Source of the DNA: a virus
Lineage: Duplodnaviria > Caudoviricetes
Strand: one strand, 5' to 3'
Virus record (IMG/VR): IMGVR_UViG_3300022751_000238
Location: 1 to 51,268 of that record
DNA: 51,268 nt
A program made the position numbers and the translations under genes. Position 1 is the stretch's first letter; each line of letters opens with the position of its first letter. Under the pieces are notes generated by a model. That model was not told the DNA's origin. It did no database searches and saw nothing but the letters and a program-made list of their open reading frames with translations. Positions 7,673 through 51,268 of the stretch are shown piece by piece.

Positions 7673-7674
7673 CG

Positions 7675-9834: not shown

Positions 9835-10157
9835 AAGAGCACCTTTTTAACTGGATGGAACTGGATCAGGTTTGTCCACAGCCAACGGCTTGGCATTACC
9901 AATGGGTAGAAATAAATCTAAGGCTTCACGCCTACGTCAGATACCGAAATGAAGGCACGCTCGATGGTATGATCAAGCCATTTGTCGAAACTCTGGCCTA
10001 TGTGTCGGAGATCGGAAGCGGATCGGGATGGGAATGGCGTGCTTTCAAGCACGTTGATGAGCAGGTCAGAGAATTGGACATTCCCTACCCACAACAATAT
10101 TATCAGATTACTCTTCAAACCGAAGAGAAGATCCTGAAAGAGCTTAACGAAAGTTAA
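9831..10157 (+). CDS. phage early hypothetical protein
   Basis: ATGA-coupled within the early operon. Confidence 0.6.
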   Translation: MKEHLFNWMELDQVCPQPTAWHYQWVEINLRLHAYVRYRNEGTLDGMIKPFVETLAYVSEIGSGSGWEWRAFKHVDEQVRELDIPYPQQYYQITLQTEEKILKELNES

Positions 10158-10233
10158 GATTTAGAGGAGGGTTTACATGCGATTATTCCGGTCGGTTTCG
10201 ACCGGAAATAATTTCCCCCAAATCTATAAAAAC

Positions 10234-10304
10234 GAGGGCATGGCGCAACGGTAGCGCGTTTGGTTCCACACCATTCTGTCTGGGTTCGAATCCCAGTGTC
10301 TTCA
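10234..10304 (+). tRNA. atypical tRNA or tRNA-like gene, anticodon CCA
   Basis: Acceptor GAGGGCA/TGTCTTC, D stem GCGC/GCGC, T arm CTGGG-TTCGAAT-CCCAG; anticodon stem has only 3 pairs, loop TTCCACA; no encoded CCA end. Confidence 0.7.
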
Positions 10305-10423
10305 CGCGGTAGGGCAGACGCCTTTTAGGCTGAACTACAAACCTCTGATCCGTGACAAGGTGACTCTTGTCACGGGGTAAGGGGAAATTTTGCAAAACGT
10401 ATATTATTCAACGTGTATTTTTG

Positions 10424-12904: not shown

Positions 12905-13054
12905 ATGAATAAATATTTGTACTTCTTTCTCTACTGGTCAATTGCATCGGTATTAATCGCAGTGCTTTTTATGGAGCTGCTCTTATCCGTTCCAATCGCC
13001 TTTGTAGAAGCACTGGAAGGTTCTATTTATTACCATCTAACTAAAAACGCATGA
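12905..13054 (+). CDS. small hydrophobic protein (49 aa, not in ORF track)
   Basis: MNKYLYFFLYWSIASVLIAVLFMELLLSVPIAFVEALEGSIYYHLTKNA; stop overlaps the methylase ATG. Confidence 0.55.
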   Translation: MNKYLYFFLYWSIASVLIAVLFMELLLSVPIAFVEALEGSIYYHLTKNA

Positions 13055-36100: not shown

Positions 36101-37340
36101 TGCTAAAACGGAGGATGAAAGGCAAGCGATTGAAGCCAAAATCCAAATGGCGAAAAAAGAAAGTGAAGAGAAAATCAGGGTCGCTGAACAGGAACTGGAA
36201 GCGAAAAAGACTAATCTTTCTGAGTTACAGAATTTCACTACAGAGGTAACTAATGAAGCACTCGCCGAAGCAAATAAAGCTTCGGAAAAACAGATCACTA
36301 TCGCCAGCGACGAAGCAGAGCAAAAGGCAGATTTCAAAGCAGATCTGGAAGAAACGATCGCCGCTGAAAACCGTAAGGCGCGCGCTGTTGAGCAGGCCGA
36401 AAAAACCAAAGCCTTCAAGGCACAGAAAAAAGCTGATATCGCAACGGCACTTATAACGGGGGCATTGGCCGTACTGAAAGCACTCGCTAACTTTTTCCCG
36501 CTGAATATCATCCTGGCCGCTACGGCTGCGGTGGTAACCGGTGTTCAAATAGCCAAGATCAAAAACCAACCAGATCCTGTTTTCGCCCTGGGCGGAATCT
36601 CACCAAATCCAAGCTTCGCTGATGGCGGAACTTTGGGACATGTACCACAAGGTGGTAAACACGGAATCAGTTACGGAACCGGAGGAATCCAGCTTCTCGA
36701 CCGCGCCACTGGCCGCGATGTCGGAGAAATGGAAGGCGGCGAAGCGATTATTTCCACCAAGCAGACTGAGGCCAATTGGCCGCTTATTCAGCAAATGTTT
36801 AAAAATGCCAGAACGCCTGGTAAAACCAACACGCCGGTGATCCCGCATCCAGCGACTCCCATGGCCTTCCGTGACGGCGGAAAGTTCGAAAGCCCATACT
36901 TCGAAAGAGGGATGTATCTGTTTGGTTCCAAAAAACGTAAAGCCGAGCAAGCGGCCAAAGATGCCGAAGCCGAAGCGGCCAGAGCACAGGCGGAAGCCGA
37001 CGCGGCCATGGCGGACATGCCAAGCTTTGACAGCGGTGCGTATGGCGGCATCGACAGCAGTGATCCATCCGCCAGCGGAGATACGGCCGGCGCAGCTGCG
37101 CAGCATGAGGAAGCCAGAAAAATGGGTAAAGATCAGCTTCAAGCTATTCTGGATATTTTACAGGAAACCAAAGCTAACGGTGATGCACTTGGACGTGTAG
37201 TTTCAATCGTCGGTGATCTGAAAGGTTCTGTCAACGGAGTTGAAGGCGCGGTTAACAGTGTCCGTGATGCAGTATACAATACAAACACCCAGGGCAAGTT
37301 TGATCAGTTAATTGGTGCTATCAGCAGCATGAGTGCATAA
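33159..37340 (+). CDS. tape measure protein
   Basis: 1393 aa; coiled coils, tape-measure domain ('GEFERLKEFG'), amphipathic repeats, C-terminal FAxGG and 'EMEGGE' motifs. Confidence 0.92.
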   Translation: MNGDVIEVDVRSNSKQLQDDLTKAKDRAKELRKELADIEKTSGKGSDEWKKYKAELKETQEQAAKLTKELRNMDVTKMTFSQLKTYVNDLNKELKNMVPGSAQATAQLKKIGEAEAQFKKVSDQAKKIKDEAADLGQPGLWGKITSGVKSIGTAFQAIIALQIIQWMVDIGKAVFTTTATFEKYEKVLTTALGGQKEAKAAMEAIKKMAKETSFGVDELTEGYVKMVNRGLRPSQSEMTKMADLAASQGKTFDMLIEGILDAQTGEFERLKEFGVKARKEGDNVSLTFNKQTQTVKNNEEAIYQAIIAMGAMTGVAGQNAIMMETLGGKASNFGDVMDSLKTAIGDRLSPIFKFFLDLLADGIEWLVKVINASDPLIQVFEDIFSGVGQLASSFINIFSNVFPKFNASGLTLATVMQGIAVVFRAVLTPIQIFIGGLTMVYDAISGVVQGGKALVQFLAGDFSGAAKTFENSKTNFSNISKHATESYEKIKSGWTDAFVTQPKKDSVEAAFAAGTSETKKQDSISEAQKKAAAKQAEQKQKAEGKINEMIAQLDAEHNQLTADNAIKTEEFKIEEKRRKRLKEITDSIADEKTKEAARIAVNRNADAEIIALREKDNKKALELLSQMESEHSVKTAKTALEAEEAKIAEIQRKRLADIEVSKADETVKTQLIEAINRNAEASLDKVRGEYRQKRIKEQEEADRKLLEQGNFLRDQEQKAEMTLFDWQITQARGNADRIAQIKKDRVDAELRFTQQKLEAEMMAEGQKAISLIQNDEQLAVALNQIEDRHHVASVAASKKASDDKLAIDKDLHEKKAANLKAYSDMFGSLLADDVSGFLQSAQTMVKGHQEAWQQKLSADMASYQQGGEMAMQAVAFLNNLAQKKAEKAIAEANRERDEKVAILTNELSVTESMVKTSSDYVTALKSAETERLAELQRILTSETTTEEQKRDALKKYYSDQLQQMKAAEEAKIQDLQRLANLAKTEDERQAIEAKIQMAKKESEEKIRVAEQELEAKKTNLSELQNFTTEVTNEALAEANKASEKQITIASDEAEQKADFKADLEETIAAENRKARAVEQAEKTKAFKAQKKADIATALITGALAVLKALANFFPLNIILAATAAVVTGVQIAKIKNQPDPVFALGGISPNPSFADGGTLGHVPQGGKHGISYGTGGIQLLDRATGRDVGEMEGGEAIISTKQTEANWPLIQQMFKNARTPGKTNTPVIPHPATPMAFRDGGKFESPYFERGMYLFGSKKRKAEQAAKDAEAEAARAQAEADAAMADMPSFDSGAYGGIDSSDPSASGDTAGAAAQHEEARKMGKDQLQAILDILQETKANGDALGRVVSIVGDLKGSVNGVEGAVNSVRDAVYNTNTQGKFDQLIGAISSMSA

Positions 37341-37414
37341 ATAGCGATTTTAACGATTTTTTAATAATGGTCTTTTTTCGGTATATTGTCAACATTAATT
37401 TACTCCACGTAAAC

Positions 37415-37906
37415 ATGGTAAAAACTATTGTGGTAACACTCCCACCGCATGTAAAAAAATTCTTTCAAACTGAGTACGATGGTTATCAAAGAAAAAACGG
37501 AATGGATGAACTCCACGTTGATAAACACTCTGAACTTGGCAAATTAATTCATCTTATTTCCCGACCGATTCTGCACACCCAAAAGGTGGCAAACAAGAAA
37601 AGCCCGGGCGCATTATCGATCCGTTATTACTCTCACGTGCAAAGTATGGAGGTGCCGGTTGACAAACTTGGTATGCTTGCTTTGTACATGGAAGAAATTT
37701 TCAGACGGACGATGGTTGCCGAAGTTCGGGGTGGTCAGGAGCTAGTCGGCGGCGACTATGGCCCGCTGGTGACAATGTCTTTGCAACGCCGGGGAATCGA
37801 GCGTGACGTGGATGTGGATTACCAGACCTGCCGGAAAATTTACCGCGATCACGTGAGTAAAATAAAGCGGCGGTCGAGCAAACTTTTTGAAAAAAGTTAT
37901 GCGTAA
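37415..37906 (+). CDS. putative transcription regulator (candidate late activator)
   Basis: N-terminal 'IVVTLPPHVKKF', C-terminal helical basic 'DVDYQTCRKIYRDH'; non-structural-looking gene inside the late region. Confidence 0.45.
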   Translation: MVKTIVVTLPPHVKKFFQTEYDGYQRKNGMDELHVDKHSELGKLIHLISRPILHTQKVANKKSPGALSIRYYSHVQSMEVPVDKLGMLALYMEEIFRRTMVAEVRGGQELVGGDYGPLVTMSLQRRGIERDVDVDYQTCRKIYRDHVSKIKRRSSKLFEKSYA

Positions 37907-37971
37907 AAAGTAACGGAAATGCGCAAAAAGTAACGAAAATGCGTAATCCGTAACGAAGATGCGTAAAAAGT
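37899..37971. repeat. 20-bp tandem repeat, ~3.6 copies
   Basis: atgcgtaaaaagtaacggaa / atgcgcaaaaagtaacgaaa / atgcgtaatccgtaacgaag / atgcgtaaaaagt. Confidence 0.9.
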
Positions 37972-37988
37972 CCACCTGTTTTTATGAT

Positions 37989-38023
37989 AAAAACCGTCTA
38001 TACTATCAGTACAGGCGGTTTTT
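37989..38023 (+). terminator. intrinsic terminator
   Basis: aaaaaccgtctatact-atc-agtacaggcggttttt. Confidence 0.65.
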
Positions 38024-38057
38024 CATTTCAATTCATTGTCAAAAACCGTGTTTTTTC

Positions 38058-38093
38058 GTCCTTTCAAACGGGCTATTTTAAGCGGAAATTTCG
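38058..38093 (+). promoter_or_regulatory. late promoter copy 5
   Basis: GTCCTTT-N22-AATTTCG. Confidence 0.7.
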
Positions 38094-38096
38094 GGC

Positions 38097-38648
38097 ATGT
38101 TAGGTGCCCTCGAAAAAATTGGCGAACCGTGCCAGTCTCCCTTCAATGCCGGATTTCTCACGCATCTGTACGCGATACAGACGCAGAATCTTGTTTATGT
38201 CCATTCCCCTGGTGCTGATTCCGTTTCGCAGCCATTAAGCGCGATCGGAATTCAGCCGGGTTCAATCATCACAGAATTTCTGATCCGCACAAAAACCGCG
38301 ACGTTTTCTGAAACCATGGCCGAAAGTGCCGATGGCATCGCCTTTCAGACCTCGCTCGCTTTTCCGATGAAAGGAACGGCTGTGGAGCTAACGAACTGGA
38401 TTCACAAAAACCGCAGACGCCGTTACATCCTTTTGATGCGTGATACGCTTGGAAACTGCTACATGATGGGAAGCTATGACAACGGCGCACGTGTAAGCTG
38501 GAACCGTCAGGTCACTTCGCAAAGCCTGCATCAGCTTGCCTTCAATCTTGTCAATTGGCACCCGATACAGTTTTTACCCTCCATTGACCTGGAAAAGATA
38601 TTCCCACACCGGGAATTTGATTACAGCTTTGATTTATCCTTCTCATAA
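38097..38648 (+). CDS. virion protein (head-closure or tail-tube-like fold)
   Basis: beta-rich, 'RD..GN.Y..GS'; C-terminal FDYSFDLSF motif; precedes the tail fibre. Confidence 0.5.
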   Translation: MLGALEKIGEPCQSPFNAGFLTHLYAIQTQNLVYVHSPGADSVSQPLSAIGIQPGSIITEFLIRTKTATFSETMAESADGIAFQTSLAFPMKGTAVELTNWIHKNRRRRYILLMRDTLGNCYMMGSYDNGARVSWNRQVTSQSLHQLAFNLVNWHPIQFLPSIDLEKIFPHREFDYSFDLSFS

Positions 38649-38671
38649 CATTTCTAATTTACTCAAACTTC

Positions 38672-41600
38672 ATGGCCTGGAATTACGACGACGAAGAAAT
38701 CTACGGAATAATTGACGCAAATCTCAAAGATTCACCTCCCAACCCACCAGCGGTAAATACCGCTCCAACTGTCCGAGCACTTTTGAAATCCTACTGGTCT
38801 GCAATACGTGGACAGGTTTCCGGTGCGCTAGGTTCTACTGATTTATTATTAGAAGATGTGCAAACAAAAATTGACACTGCGTTTGCAAAAAGCGAATTGA
38901 TTTATGAACAGTTTTCATTAGCAAGTGGAATTGGTACTTATAATGCGACAACGGGAATTGCTACGATAACAGAAACTGGTGCAACTTTCACGCCATCTGT
39001 TGTTGCAAATCAAGTGAATGGTAGGTATTTCGACATTGTTGTTGCCGGAACAAAGTCAGTTACCGGAACACCCGTTGCTATGGAAATCGGCGGTGTTCTA
39101 ATCAGTCGGGGTACTAAATGGGATTACATTCCGAAGGGTACACTTCTTATTGATCCTAGAAAAAGTCCAAATTTAATTCTATCAGCTAACAGCACGCCGG
39201 AAAACTGGCTACTTGTTGGATCATCCACAGATACACAGCCTTTAATTGTAGTTCAAACACAGCCCGCTGTAATCACACTTCAAAAGGGTGTAAAGGGTCT
39301 CGGCTTTATGTATAAGGCGGTTATGCAGCCAAATTCAAGAGTGAATTATTTTTCTAACAAAATAAGTCTGGACGCTCTTCCAGTTGGGGAAAAAGTTCAT
39401 CTAGGGTATTTTAGATACCTTTCAGCAGGAACGGTTTTGAGTGCAAGTACTGTGCATAAACTGTGGCCTTTACCTGAGAATATTGACGCAAATATTACAA
39501 TGGAAACCATTGATTTGGGTGGTGGTCTTCAATATGTGCGCTCTGTTAGTCCAATAACGGTTCCGTCTTATACATCACGGTGCGAAATTAGAATCTATTT
39601 CTATGCGGCACCTGGAAGCGTTGTTGATGGTGAAATGTGGTTTGGCTCCCCGTCCCTGATTAAAACGTCAATCGCACTGGCTCCTTTGATGTACGTTGGT
39701 GGAGAAGATTTATCAAGCGTGCCAAGCCCAATGACAAGTCAAAATCTTGTTTCGTTTGCTAATTTTAGCCCAGATCAATGGATTTTAAATACAAGTGCGT
39801 CCAGTATTGGAGATAAACCCATACTATACAGGCAATCCGGGACAGTATCTTTAATTTCTTCGGTTAAAAAATTTAAACAATTCTCATTTGCGGTAAAGGT
39901 TGCGGGCATTCAATTAAATTCCAGAGTTAATTTTGTTTCTCAGATAATTAAAACAAATGAAACGATCGCGCCAGGCACAATGGTTTCATTTGGATTTTTC
40001 CTGAACGTAGATACAGGCGTTGATATATCACAAGTGGTTTGCCAAATTGTGGATGCAACAAATTTATCTGTGGGACTTATAGCCATCACAACAGAGTTCG
40101 TTAATTTAGGTAACGGTCTGCGTTATTATCGAAGTACTATTCCTGTTTCAATGCCTTCGTATGCAAGTAATCAAGCGGCGGTAGTTGCTTACATTTATAC
40201 GGGTGCTGCATCTGTTACGGGTGATATTTACTTGGCATCTCCATCGCTGGTAAAGAGCCCTCAAAAATTACAGCCTCAAAATTACTTGGGAATGGAAGAT
40301 GCCCAGTCGGATACGAGTGGGTTGCAATCCCAAATAACGGCCAATGCTTCTGATATTACCCAGGCAAATAGTAATTTATCATTAGCAAATACAAGACTAA
40401 GAAATAATTCTATTTCAGACGCTGGATTTTTAACTCAGTCAATCGGCGCTCAGTCTCTTACCTTTCCCTGGGGGTTAGGAGGGCTTGGCTCAAACTATCA
40501 AGCTCCTTTTGTTTTTGAGTTAACGCCTGATGGGCCAGCCGGCACAAGGTGTTTAAAGCAAACGCACTCAAAAAGATCGTCCGATGGTTTGCTTTCGATT
40601 TGTACAATCCATCAAACTGTGACCATCCCAGAGGATTGCAAAGGTATGTCTAAGTTCTCTTATGGATTTTGGGCGAAAAGAGATTCGCTTATGGTTAAGC
40701 CGGTTTCTTTTACCCTTACATTTTATCCAAACATAGGAGATACCACAGGATCTACAACGTCCAGCCCGGCACTTCCAGCTATGGGAGTAGCTTTGAATAC
40801 ATGGGTGTACTTGAAATTTGAAAATATAAGCGTTCCGGCTGGTACTTCGCGCATAAATATAAGGTCTGCTTTTATAGCAGATGCAGCATCTGCTGTCGAC
40901 GTAACTTGCAACCTCTGGATGCAAACATTTGAAGTTGCATTTAATTCGTCTGTGGCGAATGCAACCAATCAGAATTTTAAAATTGCACCCATTGATTACT
41001 TCAATCTTAGAGGTTTGAAATTTTGCATTTATGGAAATTCCATTGTTGCAGCTAACGTCACTACCACAAATACCCTTCTTAATGAAGCTCGTGCAATCAG
41101 TGATAGATTTCTGATGACTGTCTATGTGCGAGGAGTTGGAGGTACACGTGTTGTTGATAATAATTCAATTGCTTGGTTCGATGGTACAGGTCTATATTTG
41201 GCACGACCAGACAATGGCGGAACTCAACCGGTGGGATCATTCGAATGGAAGTCGTCTATGAGTAGCTTAGAACGTATAAACAACACTATCCCAGCTGATA
41301 CAGATATTATCCTTATACGGGGTTTAACAAATGATTATCTAAATTATCCTCTTGGAACGATTGATAGCCCGCACGACAATAATACGATCTACGGTGCATA
41401 TCAACTGATGTTAGATAGAATGTACGCACGTATTCCAAATGCTATTTTTATTCTTGCAACTCCGACACATCGAAATGGAGAAGATACTGACGTAGGCGTA
41501 GGGGCAATGGCTGGGCTTAAATTTGAGCAGGTTCGTGATGCGGTCAGAGTGATAGCAAAAAAGTACAAATATCATTTGTGCGACATGTCGGAATCTGGGA

Positions 41601-41716
41601 TCAATCAGCTAAATCATGCAACTTATTTATCTGACGGAATTCACCCTAATAGTGCAGGATACGCAAGAACGGGCGCAGTAATATTCAAGACGTTAAAAAC
41701 ACTGATCCAGTCTTGA
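38672..41716 (+). CDS. tail fibre/spike with tandem carbohydrate-binding-like domains and SGNH hydrolase
   Basis: Duplicated ~190-aa domain (NSRVN.., G.GL.Y.RS..P...PSY, SPSL.K), coiled coil, then YGNSI / G / GLTND / DGIHP SGNH blocks. Confidence 0.78.
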   Translation: MAWNYDDEEIYGIIDANLKDSPPNPPAVNTAPTVRALLKSYWSAIRGQVSGALGSTDLLLEDVQTKIDTAFAKSELIYEQFSLASGIGTYNATTGIATITETGATFTPSVVANQVNGRYFDIVVAGTKSVTGTPVAMEIGGVLISRGTKWDYIPKGTLLIDPRKSPNLILSANSTPENWLLVGSSTDTQPLIVVQTQPAVITLQKGVKGLGFMYKAVMQPNSRVNYFSNKISLDALPVGEKVHLGYFRYLSAGTVLSASTVHKLWPLPENIDANITMETIDLGGGLQYVRSVSPITVPSYTSRCEIRIYFYAAPGSVVDGEMWFGSPSLIKTSIALAPLMYVGGEDLSSVPSPMTSQNLVSFANFSPDQWILNTSASSIGDKPILYRQSGTVSLISSVKKFKQFSFAVKVAGIQLNSRVNFVSQIIKTNETIAPGTMVSFGFFLNVDTGVDISQVVCQIVDATNLSVGLIAITTEFVNLGNGLRYYRSTIPVSMPSYASNQAAVVAYIYTGAASVTGDIYLASPSLVKSPQKLQPQNYLGMEDAQSDTSGLQSQITANASDITQANSNLSLANTRLRNNSISDAGFLTQSIGAQSLTFPWGLGGLGSNYQAPFVFELTPDGPAGTRCLKQTHSKRSSDGLLSICTIHQTVTIPEDCKGMSKFSYGFWAKRDSLMVKPVSFTLTFYPNIGDTTGSTTSSPALPAMGVALNTWVYLKFENISVPAGTSRINIRSAFIADAASAVDVTCNLWMQTFEVAFNSSVANATNQNFKIAPIDYFNLRGLKFCIYGNSIVAANVTTTNTLLNEARAISDRFLMTVYVRGVGGTRVVDNNSIAWFDGTGLYLARPDNGGTQPVGSFEWKSSMSSLERINNTIPADTDIILIRGLTNDYLNYPLGTIDSPHDNNTIYGAYQLMLDRMYARIPNAIFILATPTHRNGEDTDVGVGAMAGLKFEQVRDAVRVIAKKYKYHLCDMSESGINQLNHATYLSDGIHPNSAGYARTGAVIFKTLKTLIQS

Positions 41717-41745
41717 TACTTACCTTAAACATTACCCTGTTATTC

Positions 41746-41780
41746 GTCCTTTAACCACTCCAAATTAAGCTTCTACTTCG
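41746..41780 (+). promoter_or_regulatory. late promoter copy 6 (head operon)
   Basis: GTCCTTT-N21-TACTTCG. Confidence 0.75.
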
Positions 41781-41816
41781 TATCCTCTTAATACCCAAAC
41801 GAACCCGGTACGAACT

Positions 41817-42665
41817 TTGAACGCGGAAACCTTCTCTGGATTATGGTACATGAATAAACCCTTCGCCCGCCGAATGGAAGGAATTATCCTTCCCCGGTTG
41901 GCGCAAGGTTTTGACCCAATCCCCTCCCACTTTAAACACGAAGCCGCAATTTCTCCACTCGATAAGGATGGTGATTACAGCCGGACACGAATTTACTTAA
42001 ATGACTACCTGAAACGTGGTGATGGCGATGTTGCTGTGATCCCGATGGAAGGCACGATGTCCCGAAACGGATTCTGCGGCATGGGTAACGAATTCATGAT
42101 CGATGTGCTGGCAGAAGCAGCTGCTGAAAAAGCAGTCAAAGCCGTCGTGCTGAAAGGGAACACACCTGGTGGCACCGTTGATTCCATCGAGATTTTTGCA
42201 GACGCTATCAAATCATTTCCAAAGCCGATAGTAGGCTATGTCGCTGGAAGCGTTGCCAGTGCCGGCGTATTTGCCATGAGCCAAACGGACGTGACGGTAA
42301 TGGAAAAATCCAGTGCTGCCGCTTATGGAAGTATTGGCGTACTGATGGTGCATATCGATCAAAGCCAGGCTCTGGAAAAAGCAGGGCTTGTTGTTAGGAT
42401 CTTCCGCGCTGGTGAATCGATCGACAAAGCTACTGTAAACGGCATTGAGCCGCTTACCGCGGAACTGGAAGCAGAAATCCAGATGGATCTTGACGAAGCG
42501 ATGACACTTTTTAAAGGTTACGTCAAACGTGGCCGCGCCGGAAAGCTTACTTCCGACGATGTCTTCACAGGTAAAATGTACAACTATAAAGACGCCATCA
42601 ATTACGGTCTGGTGGACCGTACCGGTGGTCTTGGCGATGCAATCCGGATCGCCCGAGCGATGTAA
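41817..42665 (+). CDS. S49 (SppA-like) prohead protease
   Basis: 'TPGGTV', 'KPIV', 'ASAG', 'GSIGV', 'GLVD' motifs. Confidence 0.88.
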   Translation: MNAETFSGLWYMNKPFARRMEGIILPRLAQGFDPIPSHFKHEAAISPLDKDGDYSRTRIYLNDYLKRGDGDVAVIPMEGTMSRNGFCGMGNEFMIDVLAEAAAEKAVKAVVLKGNTPGGTVDSIEIFADAIKSFPKPIVGYVAGSVASAGVFAMSQTDVTVMEKSSAAAYGSIGVLMVHIDQSQALEKAGLVVRIFRAGESIDKATVNGIEPLTAELEAEIQMDLDEAMTLFKGYVKRGRAGKLTSDDVFTGKMYNYKDAINYGLVDRTGGLGDAIRIARAM

Positions 42666-42688
42666 TTAAAGATTTAATATAAATCCAA

Positions 42689-43114
42689 ATGAGCAAAACA
42701 ATGAACCTATCCTCTATTATCGCAGCCATTTTCCCTGGCTCCGATAAAGTAATTTCTGAAAACTTGACTGCCGATCAGCATGCAACTTTCGCCGCAGAAG
42801 TTAGTGCGCTGAATGGGCAGCTTGAAGCGGCTATACAGGCGAACGAAACGATTTCCGCTGATCTTGTCACCAGAACAACTGAGCTGGCAACGGCAACAGC
42901 ATCCATTACAACTTTGGAAGCAAACCTTGCCACAGCAAACGCGTCAGTTTTGTCGGTAACGGCCGAGCGCGATAAATACAAAGCGCATCACGACAAAGTT
43001 TCTTCCAAGGGTGACAAAAATCCGGAAGAAGACGAAAACAGCAGACACAAGAATATGCAAGCTGGCTACAACCAGAATGCTGTTGATGTCTGGAATAAAG
43101 CCAACAGATCTTAA
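42689..43114 (+). CDS. scaffolding protein
   Basis: Coiled-coil protein between protease and capsid genes. Confidence 0.7.
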   Translation: MSKTMNLSSIIAAIFPGSDKVISENLTADQHATFAAEVSALNGQLEAAIQANETISADLVTRTTELATATASITTLEANLATANASVLSVTAERDKYKAHHDKVSSKGDKNPEEDENSRHKNMQAGYNQNAVDVWNKANRS

Positions 43115-43149
43115 TCCTAAAATTTTAACCTTATTTCCCTTCTACAATT

Positions 43150-44115
43150 ATGAAGATTTTCAATTTTGAAGCGTTCGATGCAGATTTGATGCGTACCATC
43201 GATGGTAACGGTCAGATCATTTTGGACTCTGTCGTTTACGGTGCCCAGTCCCTGGGTAACGATTTCCAGGTTCTGGTGACCCGCGATAAAGCGGCTCTTG
43301 TTCAGCTTGATGTTAAAGATGCATGGAAGCCTGCTTCTGACGGATTTGACCCTAAACAGGCACTTGATGTAAGAAGCCGGTTTGCAACGTTCAAAGAAGC
43401 TGATATCGATATGGAGATCACGCTTTCTCAAATCAAAGAAGTTTATCAGTCTTACATTGGGTGGGTTAAAGCTCCTGGTCGTACGCTGATCGAAGTGAGT
43501 GACACTCCTTTCGAAATGTTCTTTTTAAACCACATCCTTAGTACGCACTTTGAAATGCTTCGTTTGAACACGGCATGGAATGGTGTTTACAATGCCGCTG
43601 GATCCGGAGCTGGTTCATTGGTTGATGGTTTCCTTACCATGTTCACAGCTGGCCGCGGCGTTAATGGCGATATCAAAGCAGAACATGTTTTTGATGGCGC
43701 GGTAATCACTGCGCTAAATGCTTACGATCAATTCAATGGTGTAGCGGATCTGGTTAAATCGGTTCGTCCTAAAATGCTTTTGAAGGATCTGGATGTAAAA
43801 TGTAGCCTACAGGCTTACGATAACTACCGCAAAAACCGCCGTACGTTGTTCAAGGAGCATGTAGGACCTGCGGACAGACCAACGGTTCTGGATGACTATT
43901 CGAACATGAAGTTCAAGGTTGATCCAGGCTTGGCTGGTAAAGATACGATCGTGATCACTCCTCCTAAAAACCTTCTTTTTGTGGCTAATGCTGATCCGGG
44001 ACAATACCGCCTTTCTATCGTGAAGGATGTGAAATCTTATAAGATCAGTATCCGCGTTTCGCTTGGCTTTGACTACGCTACGCCTGACGAATTGTTTTTG
44101 AACGATAATATCTAA
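43150..44115 (+). CDS. major capsid protein
   Basis: 321 aa after the scaffold; 'WNG......DGF', 'TP.KNL' HK97-like pattern; followed by a terminator. Confidence 0.8.
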   Translation: MKIFNFEAFDADLMRTIDGNGQIILDSVVYGAQSLGNDFQVLVTRDKAALVQLDVKDAWKPASDGFDPKQALDVRSRFATFKEADIDMEITLSQIKEVYQSYIGWVKAPGRTLIEVSDTPFEMFFLNHILSTHFEMLRLNTAWNGVYNAAGSGAGSLVDGFLTMFTAGRGVNGDIKAEHVFDGAVITALNAYDQFNGVADLVKSVRPKMLLKDLDVKCSLQAYDNYRKNRRTLFKEHVGPADRPTVLDDYSNMKFKVDPGLAGKDTIVITPPKNLLFVANADPGQYRLSIVKDVKSYKISIRVSLGFDYATPDELFLNDNI

Positions 44116-44143
44116 GTCAAACCCTCCCTCTATCTATAAAATA

Positions 44144-44174
44144 GCTCTCCTGCATTTGCGGGAGGGCTTCTTTC
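44144..44174 (+). terminator. terminator after capsid gene
   Basis: gctctcctgc-attt-gcgggagggc followed by ttctttc. Confidence 0.65.
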
Positions 44175-44201
44175 AAAATCTCAAAAACCTTTTTCTATAT
44201 A

Positions 44202-44924
44202 ATGAAAAACCAATTTAAACTCGCGACTGCGGCTACCTCGATCGGAGCGGCTGCGGCTGTAACCCACTTCACCGGGAACGCTATGGCTGGTCTTCTTTCC
44301 GCAGCAGCGACCCAATATGCAATCCAGCAATTGACTGGAATTTCCTTGCATGATCTACAAGATGCAATGCTTTGTTCGCCACTGATCGGCATTAAAAGAG
44401 GTTGTCAAAAACAGACAATTGGTGGTTCAAAGAGACTGTATATTGTTCTTACCGAAGATTTAGAGACGGAATTCCTTACCTATGAATTAGCGAAAACTGT
44501 TGGTGAGTTCTCCGGTGCAATTCCACTGCTTGCTGGTAAAAAATTCATTGAGATCGAGGCGTGGTACGACACTACCAAGTTCGACACAGAGATGAAGATC
44601 GGCGCGGGCTTTAGCCAAGGAGTTGAGTTTAAGATCTTGGGCTACAACAAGGACATCGTCAGATTTACCTCATTGTTATGTGATACACCTGTCAATTTGA
44701 TTGTACAAGGCAATGATGATCAGCTGTATTACATCGGTCAAAAATATATTCCAATCATGCTTGAAATGAAAGGAGTTATGCCTGAGAAAGGTACTGCGCG
44801 CAAAGACGCGACCTTCACTGGTAAACAAGATGGTATGCAGGTGCCGGTATTCCCATTAAGCTCAACAGCTACTTTCGCAGTAGAGCCATTGAGCGGAGCG
44901 GAAGTTCCTGAAGGCGGCGTGTAA
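44202..44924 (+). CDS. major tail tube protein with hydrophobic N-terminal extension
   Basis: 'C...IGG.KRLYI' and 'IVQGND...Y.IG' tube-like motifs from residue ~56; Ala/Gly-rich first 55 aa. Confidence 0.65.
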   Translation: MKNQFKLATAATSIGAAAAVTHFTGNAMAGLLSAAATQYAIQQLTGISLHDLQDAMLCSPLIGIKRGCQKQTIGGSKRLYIVLTEDLETEFLTYELAKTVGEFSGAIPLLAGKKFIEIEAWYDTTKFDTEMKIGAGFSQGVEFKILGYNKDIVRFTSLLCDTPVNLIVQGNDDQLYYIGQKYIPIMLEMKGVMPEKGTARKDATFTGKQDGMQVPVFPLSSTATFAVEPLSGAEVPEGGV

Positions 44925-44984
44925 TGATCTTGGAGGCTTCATCCGGAGCCTACATTTATTTTTTATCTATTTTTCTTTATCACA

Positions 44985-45248
44985 ATGAATACAACAGAAA
45001 CAACAGAAGCACCAAAGACTTACGAACTGGCTCCGAAAGCCGAAGGTCATGAGTTTGTTAACGGCAACACCAAACATCTAAGCAAAATGAATCAGAAAGA
45101 TTTAGAAGTGCTTTTCAAAAATGGTGATGCCCGTGTAAGAGAAAAAAAAGTGACCGTGGCAGCTTCGACTCCTGAGCCTAAAAAGATCGTTGCAAAAGCT
45201 ATTGCTCCGGAAGCTAAACCCGCAGTTGTAGCAGCTCCCAAAGCATAA
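44985..45248 (+). CDS. small protein with Ala/Lys/Pro-rich tail
   Basis: Clean ORF with good start context. Confidence 0.65.
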   Translation: MNTTETTEAPKTYELAPKAEGHEFVNGNTKHLSKMNQKDLEVLFKNGDARVREKKVTVAASTPEPKKIVAKAIAPEAKPAVVAAPKA

Positions 45249-45284
45249 GCAGCCGCCATTCATTCATTTTCAATTTTCATAACA

Positions 45285-45713
45285 ATGAATATAAAACAGT
45301 TAAAAGCGGATTATCAGCTGGCTGAGCTCCGCTTAAACTCAGACAAATCTGAGAAAAACCAAACGATCTTTAAACAGGCAAAAAAGGAGTACGAAAGTGC
45401 TTTGAAGTCTGCTACTAGGGGATTGTTGATATCTGAGCCTGTCATAACGGACAATGACATAGCCAGAGGGAAAAAATTGGTAGATGCTTTGAAAACAGCG
45501 AAACCAGCAACTTTGCCAAAACCAGCGGCTTTGCCAAAAAACGAAAACCCGAAAATTGAACCGGTTTCTGGGGAAAATCAAAAACCTGACACTTCGGCCG
45601 ATACCCAGCAGAATGGCGATGCGTCCGGGCAAAATGAGCAGTTGCCGGCAAATACCGAGACTTCTGGCGATGCGGGATCTGAACCTGAAAAAAAAACGGA
45701 AGTGAATCCGTAA
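45285..45713 (+). CDS. hypothetical protein, 0-frame product of a probable frameshift gene
   Basis: Ends EPEKKTEVNP across an A9 run. Confidence 0.7.
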   Translation: MNIKQLKADYQLAELRLNSDKSEKNQTIFKQAKKEYESALKSATRGLLISEPVITDNDIARGKKLVDALKTAKPATLPKPAALPKNENPKIEPVSGENQKPDTSADTQQNGDASGQNEQLPANTETSGDAGSEPEKKTEVNP

Positions 45714-46162
45714 GCGAAGAATCCAAAGCACATCAAAAAGAGCAGCTTCTTGCGCATGCCAACAGGCTGCACATGGAAGCTGCTCTTTTATCTAATACCC
45801 TGCACGAGTACCGTGATGACGATGTGGAAGGTGTCAGGCCGGTAATTGCCAAAATAGATTCCATCCGTCAGCAATGGAGGGAGGTAATGAAGACAATCCA
45901 ATATTTTGATAAGACCGGCACTTTGCCGGAACCCAAAACCGAGCAATCTATTTTCACGCCCCTGGCTACAAAGGCCGGCGTCGCAGAATTACAGCTCGAA
46001 CTGAACCGGATAAATGTTAATATTTCCAAGCACACCAGAAAGCTGGAACTGACACCTGATCACCGGAAAGCGGAACAATGGCTTGAAGACCTGGCTAAAC
46101 TTGAAGCCCTCAAACTTGAACTCAGACAAAACATTACGACCCTGAACTATGCGTCAACATAA
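45689..46162 (+). CDS. -1-frame extension (helical protein preceding small terminase)
   Basis: Frame is open from 45689, right after a TGA, through the track ORF 45773-46162. Confidence 0.65.
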   Translation, partial: KKNGSESVSEESKAHQKEQLLAHANRLHMEAALLSNTLHEYRDDDVEGVRPVIAKIDSIRQQWREVMKTIQYFDKTGTLPEPKTEQSIFTPLATKAGVAELQLELNRINVNISKHTRKLELTPDHRKAEQWLEDLAKLEALKLELRQNITTLNYAST

Positions 46163-46727
46163 CAAATACCTCGAAAAAGTATATGAGGAAATGGACATTT
46201 ACCGCCAACATGTTTTTGATGGCAAAGAACTCACCATCAAACAGCAGGAGACCTATGGCAAACTGGAAATTATGCGTGGATGGCTTCTGGCAGGTCTTTC
46301 GGATGTAGATTCGATCAAACTGGCCAAAACGGATGAGCGTGTCCAGCTTCAAGATCGAAGAGCCAGGGAATTGCTGGCTATGACTTACGAACTGTTCGCT
46401 GAGCTGCGCCAGCTTCGAAACCGCGACGGCATCAAGTATATGTACTCCGAGCTTTTCAGGAAAGTGGCCGAAAAAGTAATTCAGGACTACGAAACACTCA
46501 GGGACTCCGGAGCTGATCCGAAAGCCGCCGCCGCGTTGATCCGGGAATATCGTGGAATTATAAAGGAAGCTGCTGTCATCGACGGAGCTTACGATACCAG
46601 CAAAATCCCTGATGATGCTAAGAAAAAACCAACCAAAATCGTGATCAAACGAAAAACGGTAATCAATAACGGAATTGTGGAAAAAGACGAATTAACAGAA
46701 CAGGCAAACTATGAAATCGGGAATTGA
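46149..46727 (+). CDS. terminase small subunit (putative)
   Basis: Helical/HTH-like 192-aa protein overlapping the terL start. Confidence 0.65.
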   Translation: MRQHNKYLEKVYEEMDIYRQHVFDGKELTIKQQETYGKLEIMRGWLLAGLSDVDSIKLAKTDERVQLQDRRARELLAMTYELFAELRQLRNRDGIKYMYSELFRKVAEKVIQDYETLRDSGADPKAAAALIREYRGIIKEAAVIDGAYDTSKIPDDAKKKPTKIVIKRKTVINNGIVEKDELTEQANYEIGN

Positions 46728-48204
46728 ATTAATTCAGGAAATTGAGGTCAATGACAAGCAAGCCGATTTCATCGAAGGCATTTTCTATGGTCTGACTGCC
46801 GAAGGAACCAAAACAGCAACCATGATCGGTGGTATAGGTTCTGGGAAATCTTTTGCAATGGCGCTTTTAATGTTGGTCAGCAAAGAAGAACTTCCAAAGG
46901 CAAAAGGTCAATTTGCCTGCGCAACAAAAACCCAATTTCAAAGGGCGATTTTCCCGGGTATTAAATCTGTATGGGCTGAAAACTTTGGGATCAGAGAATA
47001 CAATTTCAAAACCGGACAAGGTGATTATGCGCTTTGGCGTAAACCGCCAGACGATTGGGAAAAGCCTTGGCAGGAACCTGACAACTGGGAAAATTGCATC
47101 ACTTTTCCCAACGGTTGGGTTATTGAGGTCTGCGGATACAAAATGCTTTCTGATCTGCATCGAGGAAGAAATGACGATTTCGCATTTATGGATGAAGCTT
47201 TGATCTTTAAACGTGAATGGCTGAAAATTCTGGAAGGTCGTATCCGTGCCAACAAAGGTAAATTCGATTCACCGATGCACTGGCTTGTTTCCATTTTCTC
47301 TTCACCACCCTACGGCTCCGGAGGGGATTGGATGTTTGATACGGAAGAGCTTATGCGCGAAGAACCGGATCGCTATCTGTTTATGCAGATTACCACCAAA
47401 GACAACCTTATGTTTTTGCCGGGCAATTATGTAGCCAACTTAAAAAAGAAGCTCACCAAATTAGAGTACGGCGTGGAAGTGGATGGTAAACGGCTGAGCA
47501 AGATGCCCAAATCATTCTATTCAGCATTGGATGACAGGCACACCGAGATCGATGAAGAAACCTTCTATGATCCCAACCACCCACTGGTCACGGTGGTCGA
47601 CTTCAACGCCCATTTCACCAGCTGCGGCAACTGGCAGAACTTTGGTAAGGGCAATCATTGTGTGAAAGGAATCTTTGTTCATGAACCAGAGCCAGATATG
47701 GACATGAGCCAAACCCTTGCCCATGAGGTAGTGGAAAGGTTTATAAACCATCGTAACAAAACAATCTACATCACCGGTGACCGCAATGGTCTAAATGCCA
47801 GTGCCAGTAGTAAGAAGAACCCTGATGGTACATGGATCACCTTGTTCGATGAGTATGCTCAGGTCTTCATTGATGCAGGATGGACAGTGATACTGTGCCC
47901 GCTTACCTATAACCCATTGAAGGATGAGATACATGCACTGATGCAGAGCATCCTGTCTGAGACAAGGGAGGATGGAGTATATGCCCGCTTCCATCCTACC
48001 GAGGCGAAGAGCGTCACAGTTAGTATGCAGCGTGCACCCATCACCGCTGACTATAAGAAGGACAAGAGGAGCGAGAACAAGAAGGGTGAAGACCAAGAGT
48101 ATGCGACCCACCTAAGTGATACGACCGACTACTACTTCGCCTGGCTGCTGCAAGGTGGACTGATGAACGGAGGAGACACCAGCTTCGATATTGAGTTCCA
48201 TTGA
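46711..48204 (+). CDS. terL: terminase large subunit
   Basis: Walker A GGIGSGKS, Walker B FAFMDEA, nuclease acidic motifs VVDFN, ITGD, HLSDTTDY. Confidence 0.92.
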   Translation: MKSGIELIQEIEVNDKQADFIEGIFYGLTAEGTKTATMIGGIGSGKSFAMALLMLVSKEELPKAKGQFACATKTQFQRAIFPGIKSVWAENFGIREYNFKTGQGDYALWRKPPDDWEKPWQEPDNWENCITFPNGWVIEVCGYKMLSDLHRGRNDDFAFMDEALIFKREWLKILEGRIRANKGKFDSPMHWLVSIFSSPPYGSGGDWMFDTEELMREEPDRYLFMQITTKDNLMFLPGNYVANLKKKLTKLEYGVEVDGKRLSKMPKSFYSALDDRHTEIDEETFYDPNHPLVTVVDFNAHFTSCGNWQNFGKGNHCVKGIFVHEPEPDMDMSQTLAHEVVERFINHRNKTIYITGDRNGLNASASSKKNPDGTWITLFDEYAQVFIDAGWTVILCPLTYNPLKDEIHALMQSILSETREDGVYARFHPTEAKSVTVSMQRAPITADYKKDKRSENKKGEDQEYATHLSDTTDYYFAWLLQGGLMNGGDTSFDIEFH

Positions 48205-48246
48205 AAGACCCCCGTCCCCCCCCTACCCCATATCGAAAAATGCCCC

Positions 48247-48282
48247 GCCCCCCTCAAGGTCTGCCCTCGAGGGGGGCTTTCA
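48247..48282 (+). terminator. GC-rich hairpin after terL
   Basis: gcccccctc-N13-gaggggggc followed by tttc. Confidence 0.5.
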
Positions 48283-48472
48283 TATATTCGGAAAATTTTT
48301 TTTTGGAAATTTCCAAAATGTCAAAGGGCGGGCTTGATCTGCCGACTTTTCACCTAAAAAAACAGATTTAAATTTTTTGTGATTGATTTTCAGCCGGTTG
48401 GCTCTGGATGTTGCAAGGAAAAGGTGCAACTTTTTATAAAGATACAAAATTCTATTGATATACAGCCATTTA

Positions 48473-48507
48473 GTCCTTTCTGATGCGTCCAAATCGCACT
48501 CTTTTTG
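48473..48507 (+). promoter_or_regulatory. late promoter copy 7
   Basis: GTCCTTT-N21-CTTTTTG. Confidence 0.65.
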
Positions 48508-48526
48508 TCAAAAAACAATTAGAGAC

Positions 48527-48982
48527 ATGAAGACAATCAAAAAAACTTGGGATGAGATTACCAATGCATTTTGGAAAACACTTGTAAAACTGCTGGACGC
48601 AGTTGAAAGAATTAACTGGGACGTCGTGGGCGGGAGCCTTATTATTTCCGTGCTGATTTTTTTTGCCGCTGACGTCATAGCGGGAAAAACAGTTCGAACT
48701 AATGGGGTCGTGGTCGACAAAGTTTACACACCTGAACGAGACTACATGTCACTCGAGACAAGAACCGATGGCAACGGAAAAGTTTATCAAGAACTCGTTC
48801 ACCATCATGATCCGCCACAGTGGAAATTTATCGTACAGGACAATTCAGCAGATATTGTAAATGTCTGGTGCTCCCGTTCAAATTATAATAGAACGCCGAT
48901 CGGAACCCAGATTCCAATTCTGATAAGGTATGGTAAATGGACTCATTGGGTATTTCTACGGTATACACTTGAATACCACTAG
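48527..48982 (+). CDS. single-TM protein with OB-fold-like soluble domain
   Basis: One TM segment then 'GVVVDK.Y.P' beta domain; ATG 48527 follows promoter 7. Confidence 0.6.
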   Translation: MKTIKKTWDEITNAFWKTLVKLLDAVERINWDVVGGSLIISVLIFFAADVIAGKTVRTNGVVVDKVYTPERDYMSLETRTDGNGKVYQELVHHHDPPQWKFIVQDNSADIVNVWCSRSNYNRTPIGTQIPILIRYGKWTHWVFLRYTLEYH

Positions 48983-49052
48983 ACCAGAATTCTTTCGTAT
49001 GAAAAAGAAAGCAATAAAGCTCTATATTTACGCTTCTGAAAAATTAAGAAGT

Positions 49053-49439
49053 ATGACAAATTGGAATGAAATATTAGAACATGCATCGAGCCAGGGTTAT
49101 AGATCCAATATTGTGAAACCACTGTTCGGGATGTCAATAGTTCTATTTCTAGCGTCGGCACTTTTCCTCTTTCTTGGGTCAAATCTATTGGCCTATGTTT
49201 CTTTTGGAATGGCAGGATTAACATTTATAACCTTCCTGATTAGTTATTTCTACTGTTTATTTAAAAATCCGGATCTCCTTCGTTCTGAAAAATATAACTT
49301 AGAAAAAACTGCTATTGAAAAAGTAAGCTTGTCCGGTGATAGTTTAACAAAAGGAAAACTTCTGCCACCGAATATGGATTATGTCAAGGTCGAATCAACG
49401 ATACAGACTAGAAATGAAATTAAGAATTTAGAAGAATGA
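49053..49439 (+). CDS. 2-TM accessory protein
   Basis: 'RSNIVKPL'-TM-TM-'KNPDLLRSE'; AT-rich; ATGA-coupled to the next gene. Confidence 0.7.
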   Translation: MTNWNEILEHASSQGYRSNIVKPLFGMSIVLFLASALFLFLGSNLLAYVSFGMAGLTFITFLISYFYCLFKNPDLLRSEKYNLEKTAIEKVSLSGDSLTKGKLLPPNMDYVKVESTIQTRNEIKNLEE

Positions 49440-49786
49440 AAACGTATTTGATAATTTTAAGTGATATTCCAACAAATGACTCTGATGCGAAATTTGGTAG
49501 TTTTATTGAAAAATATAAACTGGAATATTGGAGATATACAGCATTGAACTGGATAATTTTAACGCCCGATGATATTATTTCGACAGTAATCCTATCTGAA
49601 ATTGTGGAAGCTTATGGACCAATTTTCTCATGTGTTTTGGACATCAAGATTAACGATGCATTTGGGATTCTTCCTACAACTATGTCGCAGTTAGAGAGTT
49701 CGAATCCATTTAACTGGTTTGAAATTGTGCAAGGTCCGAAATTTATTCCGAGGTGGCTTCGAGAGCCTATTGCAGAGAGTAAATGA
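49436..49786 (+). CDS. small alpha/beta protein, possibly Cas2/VapD-like ferredoxin fold
   Basis: 'MKTYLIILSD...YWRY...WII.T' beta-alpha-beta-beta-alpha-beta pattern. Confidence 0.5.
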   Translation: MKTYLIILSDIPTNDSDAKFGSFIEKYKLEYWRYTALNWIILTPDDIISTVILSEIVEAYGPIFSCVLDIKINDAFGILPTTMSQLESSNPFNWFEIVQGPKFIPRWLREPIAESK

Positions 49787-49795
49787 TTTTATCTA

Positions 49796-50101
49796 TCAAA
49801 AAACTTTTGAATTAATAACATTCGCAATTACCCAATGCTTCATCTTATTGGCTAGGTAGGTCTTTTGTCTGGATTCTTCCGGAGACTCCAAATAACGTTT
49901 ATGTTCAACAATAAACGCGCGGTCAATGATAAGAAATTCTTTATCTGCATTATCAGCCATGTATTGATCTCTTTCTTCCAAAGAATCAAAGCGTTTAATT
50001 TCGGCGATAAATGATGGCTCCTGAGTGTGTACTATATAAGCAGCTCCTGGCGAAGCTGCTTCATTCTTTGCAATTAAAAACTTAGGTACATTCTTCTTCA
50101 T
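49796..50101 (-). CDS. hypothetical protein
   Basis: 'PKFLIA.N...YIVHT..P.FI' pattern; ATG 50101 overlaps the upstream gene end. Confidence 0.65.
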   Translation of the reverse strand: MKKNVPKFLIAKNEAASPGAAYIVHTQEPSFIAEIKRFDSLEERDQYMADNADKEFLIIDRAFIVEHKRYLESPEESRQKTYLANKMKHWVIANVINSKVF

Positions 50102-50464: not shown

Positions 50465-51268
50465 ATGAAAACTGAAATTCATTTAAAAACTCCAATCGGA
50501 TATTACGGAGGAAAACAGAAAATGTTACCTCATATTCTGCCGAAAATCCCTGAGCACAAATCCTACATAGAGCCATTTTTCGGAGGTGGAGCCGTCTTCT
50601 TCGGAAAGAAGCCCAGCAAATTCGAAGTTGTAAACGACATAAACCATCGTTTAATAACCTTCTACAAAGTCTTAAAATATGATTTTGATGAAATTCAGAA
50701 CCTCATTGACGAGACTTTTCACTCGCGAGCGCAACATAAGGAATCCGATTTGCTTTACATTTCACAAATGGATTTGGTATCTAACCCGGTCGGCTGCGCC
50801 TGGGCAGTGTGGACACAAACAAATATGGGCTTCTCAAAGATGATGGGCAAAGGTTTCGGCTACGATCGCAAAGGCTCAGCTGCTCTCAGCAATTTTAATC
50901 GAAAGAACAATTTTACTATTCAACTTAAGGATCGTTTTAAACGAGTAACAATTGAAAGCTACGACGTACTAAAGGTTATTAAAGCATACGACAGCCCTGA
51001 CGCTTTTTTTTATCTCGATCCGCCTTACGTAAGCTCTGATCAGGGACACTACGCTGGCTACACACTAGATAATTTCAGGCAGTTACTTGATGCCTGTGTA
51101 AATATGAAAGGTAAATTTTTACTCAGCAGTTATCCGGAGCAGATCCTTTTAGAATACAGGGAAAAATATGTCTGGAAGTGCGAGGATCACCAGAAGAAGT
51201 TAGCCGTTGATGGTAGAAGAAAGGGAGCCAGGACAAAAACAGAATGCTTAACCTGGAATTACTCATAA
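50465..51268 (+). CDS. D12-class DNA adenine methyltransferase
   Basis: PIGYYGGKQ, EPFFGGG, VVND, LDPPY, ECLTWNY. Confidence 0.9.
   Translation: MKTEIHLKTPIGYYGGKQKMLPHILPKIPEHKSYIEPFFGGGAVFFGKKPSKFEVVNDINHRLITFYKVLKYDFDEIQNLIDETFHSRAQHKESDLLYISQMDLVSNPVGCAWAVWTQTNMGFSKMMGKGFGYDRKGSAALSNFNRKNNFTIQLKDRFKRVTIESYDVLKVIKAYDSPDAFFYLDPPYVSSDQGHYAGYTLDNFRQLLDACVNMKGKFLLSSYPEQILLEYREKYVWKCEDHQKKLAVDGRRKGARTKTECLTWNYS

Follow-up and report, generated by a model that had tools for sequence, protein, structure and literature searches.

The 51,268-nt window analysed here is an IMG/VR provirus (record IMGVR_UViG_3300022751_000238) with 42.7% GC and 3,926 AAA or TTT trinucleotides. The feature under study is the 3′ part of its large terminase gene, terL, from which these trinucleotides are missing. 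The encoded TerL protein matched Pfam Terminase_6N (PF03237; score 27.4 bits, cut-off 22 bits; E 3.1e-6) and so belongs to this family, and its Walker-A-like GSGKS motif was conserved in every relative. The gene and the two intervals within it were located as follows.

46711–48204, plus strand: terL, encoding the large terminase of 497 aa, the final gene of a long plus-strand late operon.
47796–48203, no strand: AAA/TTT-free stretch in the 3′ part of terL, from an AAA/TTT count over the whole window.
47926–48140, no strand: conserved core of the depletion, from a codon alignment of 19 sequences, with recurrent gap limits at about −300 to −60 from the stop.

A preliminary description of this DNA had claimed that 47796–48203 contains no AAA or TTT and that A/T tracts are common elsewhere in the phage; both statements were borne out by an exact count over the window. 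From 47794 to 48203 no AAA or TTT started; the nearest on either side began at 47793 (AAA) and at 48204, the latter overlapping the TGA stop codon. The resulting gap of 411 nt (47793–48204) was the longest AAA/TTT-free run in the window, the runners-up being only 190 and 129 nt. Strictly defined A-tracts (AnTm with a length of at least 4 and no TpA step) were absent from 47797–48235, a distance of 439 nt that extends beyond the terL stop, as it does in the relative L002, where the tract-free state continues for 114 nt beyond the stop. The next longest tract-free stretch of the window was 262 nt, located at 28036–28297 within a 675-aa open reading frame (ORF; 27454–29481).

Codon usage changed along the gene. 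As had been claimed, Lys was encoded only by AAG (9/9) and Phe only by TTC (6/6) in codons 363–497, whereas the 5′ part of terL was mixed, with 21 AAA and 7 AAG codons for Lys and 13 TTT and 11 TTC codons for Phe. Glu codons flipped from 22 GAA and 7 GAG in the 5′ part to one GAA and eight GAG in codons 363–497, the Asn codon AAT was lost from the tract-free stretch and the trinucleotide AAT was absent there in any frame. ATG trinucleotides occurred in the stretch at 34.5 per kb, compared with 18.7 per kb window-wide. The drop in the last 100 codons was found in terL alone among the 19 long ORFs of the window, and comparable codon usage was seen in none of the other ORFs, the putative capsid gene included.

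Chance was not the explanation for the gap under the codon-shuffle null that the preliminary description had proposed. Across 20,000 synonymous-codon shuffles of terL, the longest gap had a mean of 105 nt and a maximum of 293 nt, the observed 411 nt never being attained, and the last 136 codons were in no case free of AAA/TTT (mean 20.5, minimum 6). When codons were shuffled inside the region alone, preserving its own usage, 81 of 20,000 trials were free of tracts (P = 0.004), so that the order of the codons, too, keeps tracts from arising across codon boundaries.

Related terL genes, the other comparison that had been proposed, showed the depletion in the same place. The relatives comprised prophages of Dyadobacter (93% TerL identity, D. 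diqingensis), Rhabdobacter, Runella, Flectobacillus and Siphonobacter, together with IMG/VR contigs; after removal of five identical sequences, five that were >90% identical in DNA and the mis-delimited L031, 18 non-redundant relatives with 43–93% TerL identity were retained. In 15 of the 18 the longest AAA/TTT-free run of the 4–7.5-kb locus either fell within the final 470 nt of terL or passed its stop; in two (L028 and L030) it overlapped these 470 nt, and in one (L029) it lay elsewhere. The span of 47796–48203 claimed at the outset is correct for this phage but not across its relatives, in which the conserved core is shorter (about 47926–48140). In the codon alignment of 19 sequences, the observed/expected ratio of AAA+TTT was 1.2–1.7 in the 5′ two thirds of the gene, about 1 in the following fifth and 0.20–0.57 at alignment columns 460–519 (window 47926–48103). 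Three distant Bacteroidota homologues (34, 32 and 23% identity), with hosts of 35–61% GC, showed the same trend; the 32%-identical homologue came from another prophage of D. diqingensis, and in L103, from a 35%-GC host, AAA/TTT fell from 9.5 to 2.0 per 100 nt toward the 3′ part of terL. Synonymous differences were found at 50–60% of the conserved codons among the relatives, and across sequences whose synonymous sites are otherwise saturated the depletion, judged from these alignments, is maintained by selection.

In the 28,410-nt IMG/VR contig L005/L093 the TerL match covered residues 1–355 only, after which the frame ended early; the 3′ part, which is exactly the depleted zone, is either truncated or recombinant in this contig.

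The codon shift had a restricted form. Pooled over the 19 sequences, usage fell from the 5′ part to the 3′ core for AAA (Lys, 0.60 to 0.20), GAA (Glu, 0.54 to 0.19), TTT (Phe, 0.68 to 0.27), AAT (Asn, 0.38 to 0.21), GAT (Asp, 0.54 to 0.30), TAT (Tyr, 0.50 to 0.29) and ATT (Ile, 0.47 to 0.13), and rose for the Ile codon ATA (0.12 to 0.34). It was limited to the split (two-fold) boxes: G+C at third codon positions (GC3) of two-fold codons increased from 0.47 to 0.75 (P = 1e-44), whereas four-fold GC3 was 0.63 in the 5′ part and 0.64 in the core (P = 0.62), and Gln, His and all four-fold families were unmoved. Overall GC3 rose from 0.57 to 0.69 toward the 3′ core, and CTA increased as well as ATA. 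Along terL the A/T-ending share of two-fold codons was about 0.55, then 0.44 and then 0.17–0.27. As the four-fold sites did not move, a plain GC island or GC-biased conversion is excluded.

The constraint acts on oligonucleotides, beyond codon choice. With shuffling within blocks, the 5′ control blocks contained 279 cross-codon AAA/TTT against 203 expected and 280 against 211, and the 3′ block 68 against 85.8. In the core, observed/expected ratios were low for AAA (0.34), TTT (0.45), AAT (0.45), ATT (0.35) and TTA (0.42), while ATA (0.86), TAT (0.84), GGG (0.85) and CCC (0.78) were tolerated. AT-only tetramers without a TpA step dropped from 51 to 7 per kb and those with a TpA step from 40 to 21 per kb, and A-runs and T-runs of the sense strand decreased equally. 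Tolerance of TpA, the equal behaviour of both strands and the lack of special avoidance of G/C runs together indicate a property of duplex DNA, namely that of the narrow-groove, rigid A-tract. The compositional signature points to avoidance of A-tracts in DNA, away from AU-rich RNA or slippery homopolymers. General homopolymer avoidance was ruled out, GGG and CCC showing no specific depletion.

Over the 5′ two thirds of terL (window 46711–47700; 19 relatives), cross-codon AAA/TTT had an observed/expected ratio of about 1.35 relative to synonymous shuffles. Such an excess in ordinary coding DNA implies that A/T tracts are positively favoured outside the zone.

RNA structure beyond that of synonymous shuffles was not found in six of seven sequences (z from −0.6 to +1.3; L012 gave −3.7), and an Rfam scan returned RsaJ alone, with E 0.25 and far under the gathering score. 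Synonymous differences were reduced in the last ~75 codons only (0.31–0.35, compared with 0.5–0.6), where four-fold sites were free to vary and two-fold codons were nearly fixed at C or G. A sequence-specific synonymous constraint element was rejected as a candidate, the degenerate sites holding no particular nucleotides; as far as the aligned codons indicate, what is constrained is the presence of a class of sequences, and no given sequence is preserved.

The DNA that follows terL carries a series of further features.

48208–48232, plus strand: C-rich spacer with two or three TACCCC-like repeats, found in Dyadobacter-type relatives and absent from Runella-type relatives.
48247–48277, plus strand: hairpin rich in G+C, with a T-rich run after it (inverted repeat I2; arms of 13 nt, 92% complementary).
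48277–48333, no strand: conserved non-coding element, ~70–100 nt from the zone, a putative terminase recognition site or cos flank.
48277–48290: box 1 of the element, CTTTCATATATTCG.
48292–48304: A4T9 tract of the element.
48305–48314: palindrome of the element, GGAAATTTCC, perfect over 18 bp around it and with AAAATG coming next.
48323–48333: G-box of the element, AAAGGGCGGGC.
48345–48395, no strand: A-tract-dense stretch with tracts ~10 nt apart, the phasing being a reading of the tract list.
48423–48435, plus strand: box 2, GGTGCAACTTTTT, ~90 nt past the G-box and present in nearly all aligned relatives.

The hairpin, which includes a terminator-like match at 48263–48277, is likely to terminate the late operon, and box 2 may be either a promoter or the second arm of a packaging site. 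The element was aligned in 27 usable sequences and was 80–100% identical over 31–66 nt even in relatives whose TerL was only 41–60% identical, and terL homologues at 23–34% identity retained box 1 and a palindrome 3′ of terL. Variants of the palindrome were themselves symmetric (GGCAATTGCC, GGTAATTACC and GTGAATTCAC), as expected for a site bound by a dimer. In every relative examined (93% to 23% identity) the element, or a recognisable variant of it, followed the terL stop at a distance of 5–140 nt, and it was co-inherited with terL, the genes farther downstream varying among the relatives. A-tract coverage of 48286–48395 was 0.48, within the top 0.15% of 110-nt windows, and the 439-bp tract-poorest stretch of the window thus abuts one of its tract-richest 110 bp.

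From its sequence and position the conserved element after terL is probably a DNA-packaging site. A cos site is expected to adjoin and to co-evolve with the terminase genes, and the element tracked terL at every depth examined. The closest known systems are the multipartite cos sites of lambda and HK97 and the pac sites that are embedded in terminase genes. The ring of the HK97 small terminase (TerS) recognises cos via a 9-bp A-tract and one guanine, by DNA shape readout and with the DNA in its channel, and the authors propose that recognition by TerS stalls the motor for cutting (PMC11331095). The element described here holds, as read from its sequence, A4T9, AAATTT, AAAA and AAA, each abutting G/C, and is similar to the HK97 site in this respect; it differs in following terL, whereas the HK97 site lies 15–29 bp downstream of the cut, beside terS at the left end. 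Lambda cos (cosQ-cosN-cosB) is likewise made up of several parts, with accessory elements at its flanks and bent DNA, and the G-rich box is presumably comparable in composition with G-rich cohesive ends, but the lambda terminase genes follow cos and here they precede the putative cos. Pac sites inside coding sequence are known from P22 gene 3, SPP1 gene 1 and P1 pacA, where they are cis-acting and superimposed on terminase genes. These are short, sequence-specific sites in the terS-type genes of headful phages; the terL zone differs from them in being a 250–440-bp absence of a sequence class, with four-fold sites left free. In the literature covered, from which most subscription journals were missing, no A-tract-free or codon-shifted terL 3′ end beside cos was found to be described, and as far as these searches show, a coding flank of several hundred bp defined by the absence of A-tracts appears to be new with respect to known cos and pac sites.

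Cultured phages were also searched. A DNA-level search with terL and its flank gave no match, and a protein-level search gave five records, all at or below 27% TerL identity. Polaribacter phage Leef_1 (Helgolandviridae), the sole cultured phage with a related TerL, resembles this phage in being a siphovirus with integrases and in carrying the terL homologue as its last gene; that gene is 27% identical to TerL, its stop lies 83 nt from the end of the record, a distance within which motifs resembling box 1 and AAAATG occur. Unlike this phage, Leef_1 has 30% GC, only a mild depletion in the 3′ third of terL, no palindrome and no G-box. Leef is described as a siphovirus with ‘Cos 3′’ ends that were predicted by PhageTerm and, by the authors' own account, are unverified experimentally (PMC8776804).

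A candidate for the small terminase gene was present directly upstream of terL.

46149–46727, plus strand: probable TerS gene of 192 aa, overlapping the start of terL.

This gene was conserved in 14 relatives, and searches of Pfam and PHROG returned no match for it. Its AlphaFold2 model (mean predicted local distance difference test score, pLDDT, 74.7) weakly resembled the small terminases of G20c and P74-26 (Foldseek E 0.5–0.9; VIA Z 6.4–6.7 over 110–116 residues). From its position and these weak fold matches of a predicted structure, the 192-aa gene probably encodes TerS.

The reading that we favour, tentatively and in the knowledge that it may well prove wrong, is that the last 250–440 bp of terL are a selected, DNA-level A-tract exclusion zone flanking the packaging (cos) region on the terL side. 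The packaging region would begin ~70 nt past the terL stop and would itself be A-tract-dense. The packaging site may be read partly by DNA shape, be it by the terminase (the TerS ring being the likeliest part), by a host DNA-bending protein or by both, and on the model of HK97 TerS the cue could be A-tracts beside G/C. The adjoining DNA would thread through the motor just before or after the cut and would be kept free of A-tracts, leaving the true site as the sole shape signal in the last few hundred bp; false stalling, false binding or mis-cleavage might be averted in this way. Since the zone doubles as coding DNA for the nuclease domain of TerL, the constraint would become visible as a local codon switch (to AAG, GAG, TTC, AAC, GAC, TAC and ATC/ATA) and as the avoidance of cross-codon tracts. 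Such a mechanism would account for the one-sidedness of the zone, its gradient toward the site, the A-tract rule and the overriding of host codon preference.

If this is true, recognition of the packaging site in this lineage needs more than a short cos core, namely a long shape-blank flank as well, and the zone would be a natural case of selection on DNA shape overriding host-preferred codons. It would also provide a sequence-only marker of genome termini in uncultured Bacteroidota prophages and a direct test of the scanning/stalling model proposed for the HK97 small terminase, and synonymous recoding or refactoring could break packaging with all proteins unchanged. Should the reading be wrong, the zone remains a clean, conserved case of oligonucleotide-level selection in coding sequence that needs another explanation.

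A wider proposition, which we consider doubtful, is that some cos phages encode a shape-silent ‘runway’, a coding flank of several hundred bp purged of A-tracts. A shape-reading TerS ring, scanning as the motor slows near the end of the genome, would then meet its first A-tract at the true cos. Such a runway would make the lack of a DNA-shape class into an extended cis-acting determinant of packaging; a local switch of two-fold codons would reveal it in sequence alone, and satellites copying no more than the short cos core could exploit it.

Several observations weigh against an exclusion zone beside a packaging site. The limits of the gap were nearly fixed whether the spacer after the stop was 10 nt or 120 nt, so that the position of the zone tracks the protein and not the element; in these alignments this also fits a cause bound to terL, in the mRNA or the gene. 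At the right end of HK97 there is no zone: the final 400 nt hold 15 AAA/TTT, where the mean is 17.8. In lambda, with a mean of 19.3, the first 400 nt hold 40 and the final 400 nt 19. Both are cos phages, and their lack of a comparable zone at either end means that there is no general rule. The earlier suggestion of a DNA-shape signal superimposed on coding sequence stands in so far as the depletion is non-chance, selected and bears the signature of A-tract avoidance, but not as a rule for cos phages in general. In Leef_1 the depletion in terL was mild (from 10.3 to 6–7 AAA/TTT per 100 nt), and that the record of Leef begins at the terminus predicted by PhageTerm is our own inference.

In the assembled contigs of four of ten sequencing runs, a kind of data that says nothing about virion ends, there were no ends, joints or pile-ups; one 45-kb contig spanned the stretch, and two tiny ones shared only 48272–48350, with different flanks. 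An exact-motif scan of metagenome contigs gave 32 matches, of which ~12 had the full architecture and the rest were chance matches in coding DNA, and the contig ends had no common position relative to the motif. Two contigs, L048 (1–5036) and L054 (1–5323), carried the element and box 2 without terL, beside genes for a DnaG-type primase, a VapE/DUF5906-type protein and S24 repressor-like proteins; in L054 the element abutted a RimK-like ATP-grasp gene. From this gene content they are possibly a satellite carrying its helper's packaging site, or a prophage with its attachment site just before the element. On the first reading they lend indirect support to a packaging site, as do the predicted ends of Leef and the co-inheritance of the element with terL. 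The 500 nt ahead of the terL-less element in L054 were not tract-free, although the DNA there may be that of the host. Finally, the element past terL may have a regulatory role instead of being cos.

Among the alternatives, a cause at the level of RNA is unlikely, though the least unlikely of them. The 3′ end of the late mRNA might avoid A/U-rich single-stranded stretches and so escape endonucleolytic cleavage or spurious ribosome loading; translation in Bacteroidota generally starts on A-rich unstructured leaders and not at Shine-Dalgarno sites. The location of terL as the last gene ahead of the terminator hairpin, the oligonucleotide-level rather than tRNA-level nature of the effect and the high frequency of ATG in the zone (34.5 against 18.7 per kb) agree with this, and zone limits that go with the coding sequence instead of with the spacing of the element keep it alive. 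Against it, AUA and UAU were tolerated (0.84–0.86) while AAU and AUU were as depleted as AAA and UUU, which matches a DNA A-tract rule, and A-runs and U-runs decreased equally. Other gene ends in the window, including those of long ORFs, showed no such drop, and there was no excess of RNA structure (|z| < 1.4 in six of the seven sequences).

A neutral or mutational origin is improbable. It would make the zone a compositional island left by an old mosaic junction, by GC-biased gene conversion or by repair from recombinogenic cos ends, and phage termini are indeed known as entry points for recombination. The shift grows toward the 3′ end (A/T-ending two-fold codons from about 0.55 through 0.44 to 0.17–0.27) and overall GC3 is raised (0.57 to 0.69), as such an origin would have it, but the contrast between static four-fold sites (0.63 and 0.64) and shifted two-fold sites largely refutes it, and ATA and CTA went up. 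The pattern also held from 93% to 23% identity, in hosts of 35–61% GC and with synonymous sites differing at 50–60%; the 3′ part was not better conserved in DNA, the BLASTN matches of more distant relatives spanning the 5′ part only.

Avoidance of errors, which we regard as quite improbable, would rest on the slippage of A/T runs: frameshifts near the 3′ end would yield a TerL of almost full length whose wrong C-terminus could poison the pentameric motor, and slippery runs would be removed from that part alone. This would account for the link with the coding sequence, for the 3′ gradient, for the use of AAG AAG in a Lys-rich segment and for the avoidance of cross-codon runs. However, AAT and ATT, which are not homopolymers, were as depleted as AAA and TTT, GAT and TAT codons also dropped and GGG and CCC were not specifically depleted, and the tract-free state continued past the stop (to 48235, and for 114 nt in L002).

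Local codon choice that tunes the speed or fidelity of elongation in the nuclease domain is a very improbable cause. The shift is confined to two-fold split boxes, which are read by modified wobble tRNAs, and the zone spans the region of the catalytic C-terminal motif. Its direction was nevertheless mixed, AAG, GAG and ATA being non-preferred and TTC and AAC preferred in the EF-Tu, ribosomal and RpoBC genes, and the cross-codon context effect would be left unexplained. A translationally optimised segment was ruled out, as AAG, GAG and more ATA in the zone oppose the usage of highly expressed host genes: in the host of the 93%-identical prophage, AAA/AAG counts were 19/2 in EF-Tu, 15/1 in L7/L12 and 79/24 in RpoB/C, GAA/GAG counts were 22/7 in EF-Tu and 16/0 in L7/L12, with GAA favoured in RpoB/C as well, and ATA occurred 0–3 times per gene. 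Selection for accuracy at conserved residues was also rejected; the frequency of A/T-ending codons in the 5′ ATPase domain was 0.58 in invariant and 0.54 in variable columns and is hence unbiased, and in the core it was 0.17 and 0.27, the variable columns being shifted too.

An overlapping gene was considered for one minus-strand frame.

47791–48111, minus strand: antisense ORF of 106 aa, codon-aligned with terL and judged to be a by-product and not a gene.

That this ORF constrains the codons of terL is scarcely credible in spite of its near coincidence with the zone, since its frame is complementary to terL codon for codon and requires only the absence of TTA, CTA and TCA, the relatives hold 37 such codons in the core (19 sequences) and so do not conserve the frame, it had no Pfam match, and the avoidance of AAA/TTT would stay unexplained.

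The plus-strand block that ends in terL includes genes for the tape measure, tail fibre and head protease upstream. The order of the late genes (33159–48204) was unusual, with tape measure, tail fibre, head protease and several unknowns followed by the probable terS and, at the end, terL. Beyond the element, a low-GC block (0.31–0.37) at 48455–49990 contained small ORFs without a family match that were not conserved in the relatives, and has the appearance of a variable insert of the moron type. At the other side of the window, the left 10 kb (1–10305) was host-like, encoding two large proteins with a type IX secretion C-terminal sorting domain, and was closed by a tRNA-Trp gene (10234–10305) that is a likely attachment site. 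The DNA from ~49995 onward was conserved in the relatives and includes a D12-class adenine methyltransferase gene (50465–51268); D12-class N6-adenine methyltransferase domains were found in two genes of this prophage, the other being located at 13051–14085.

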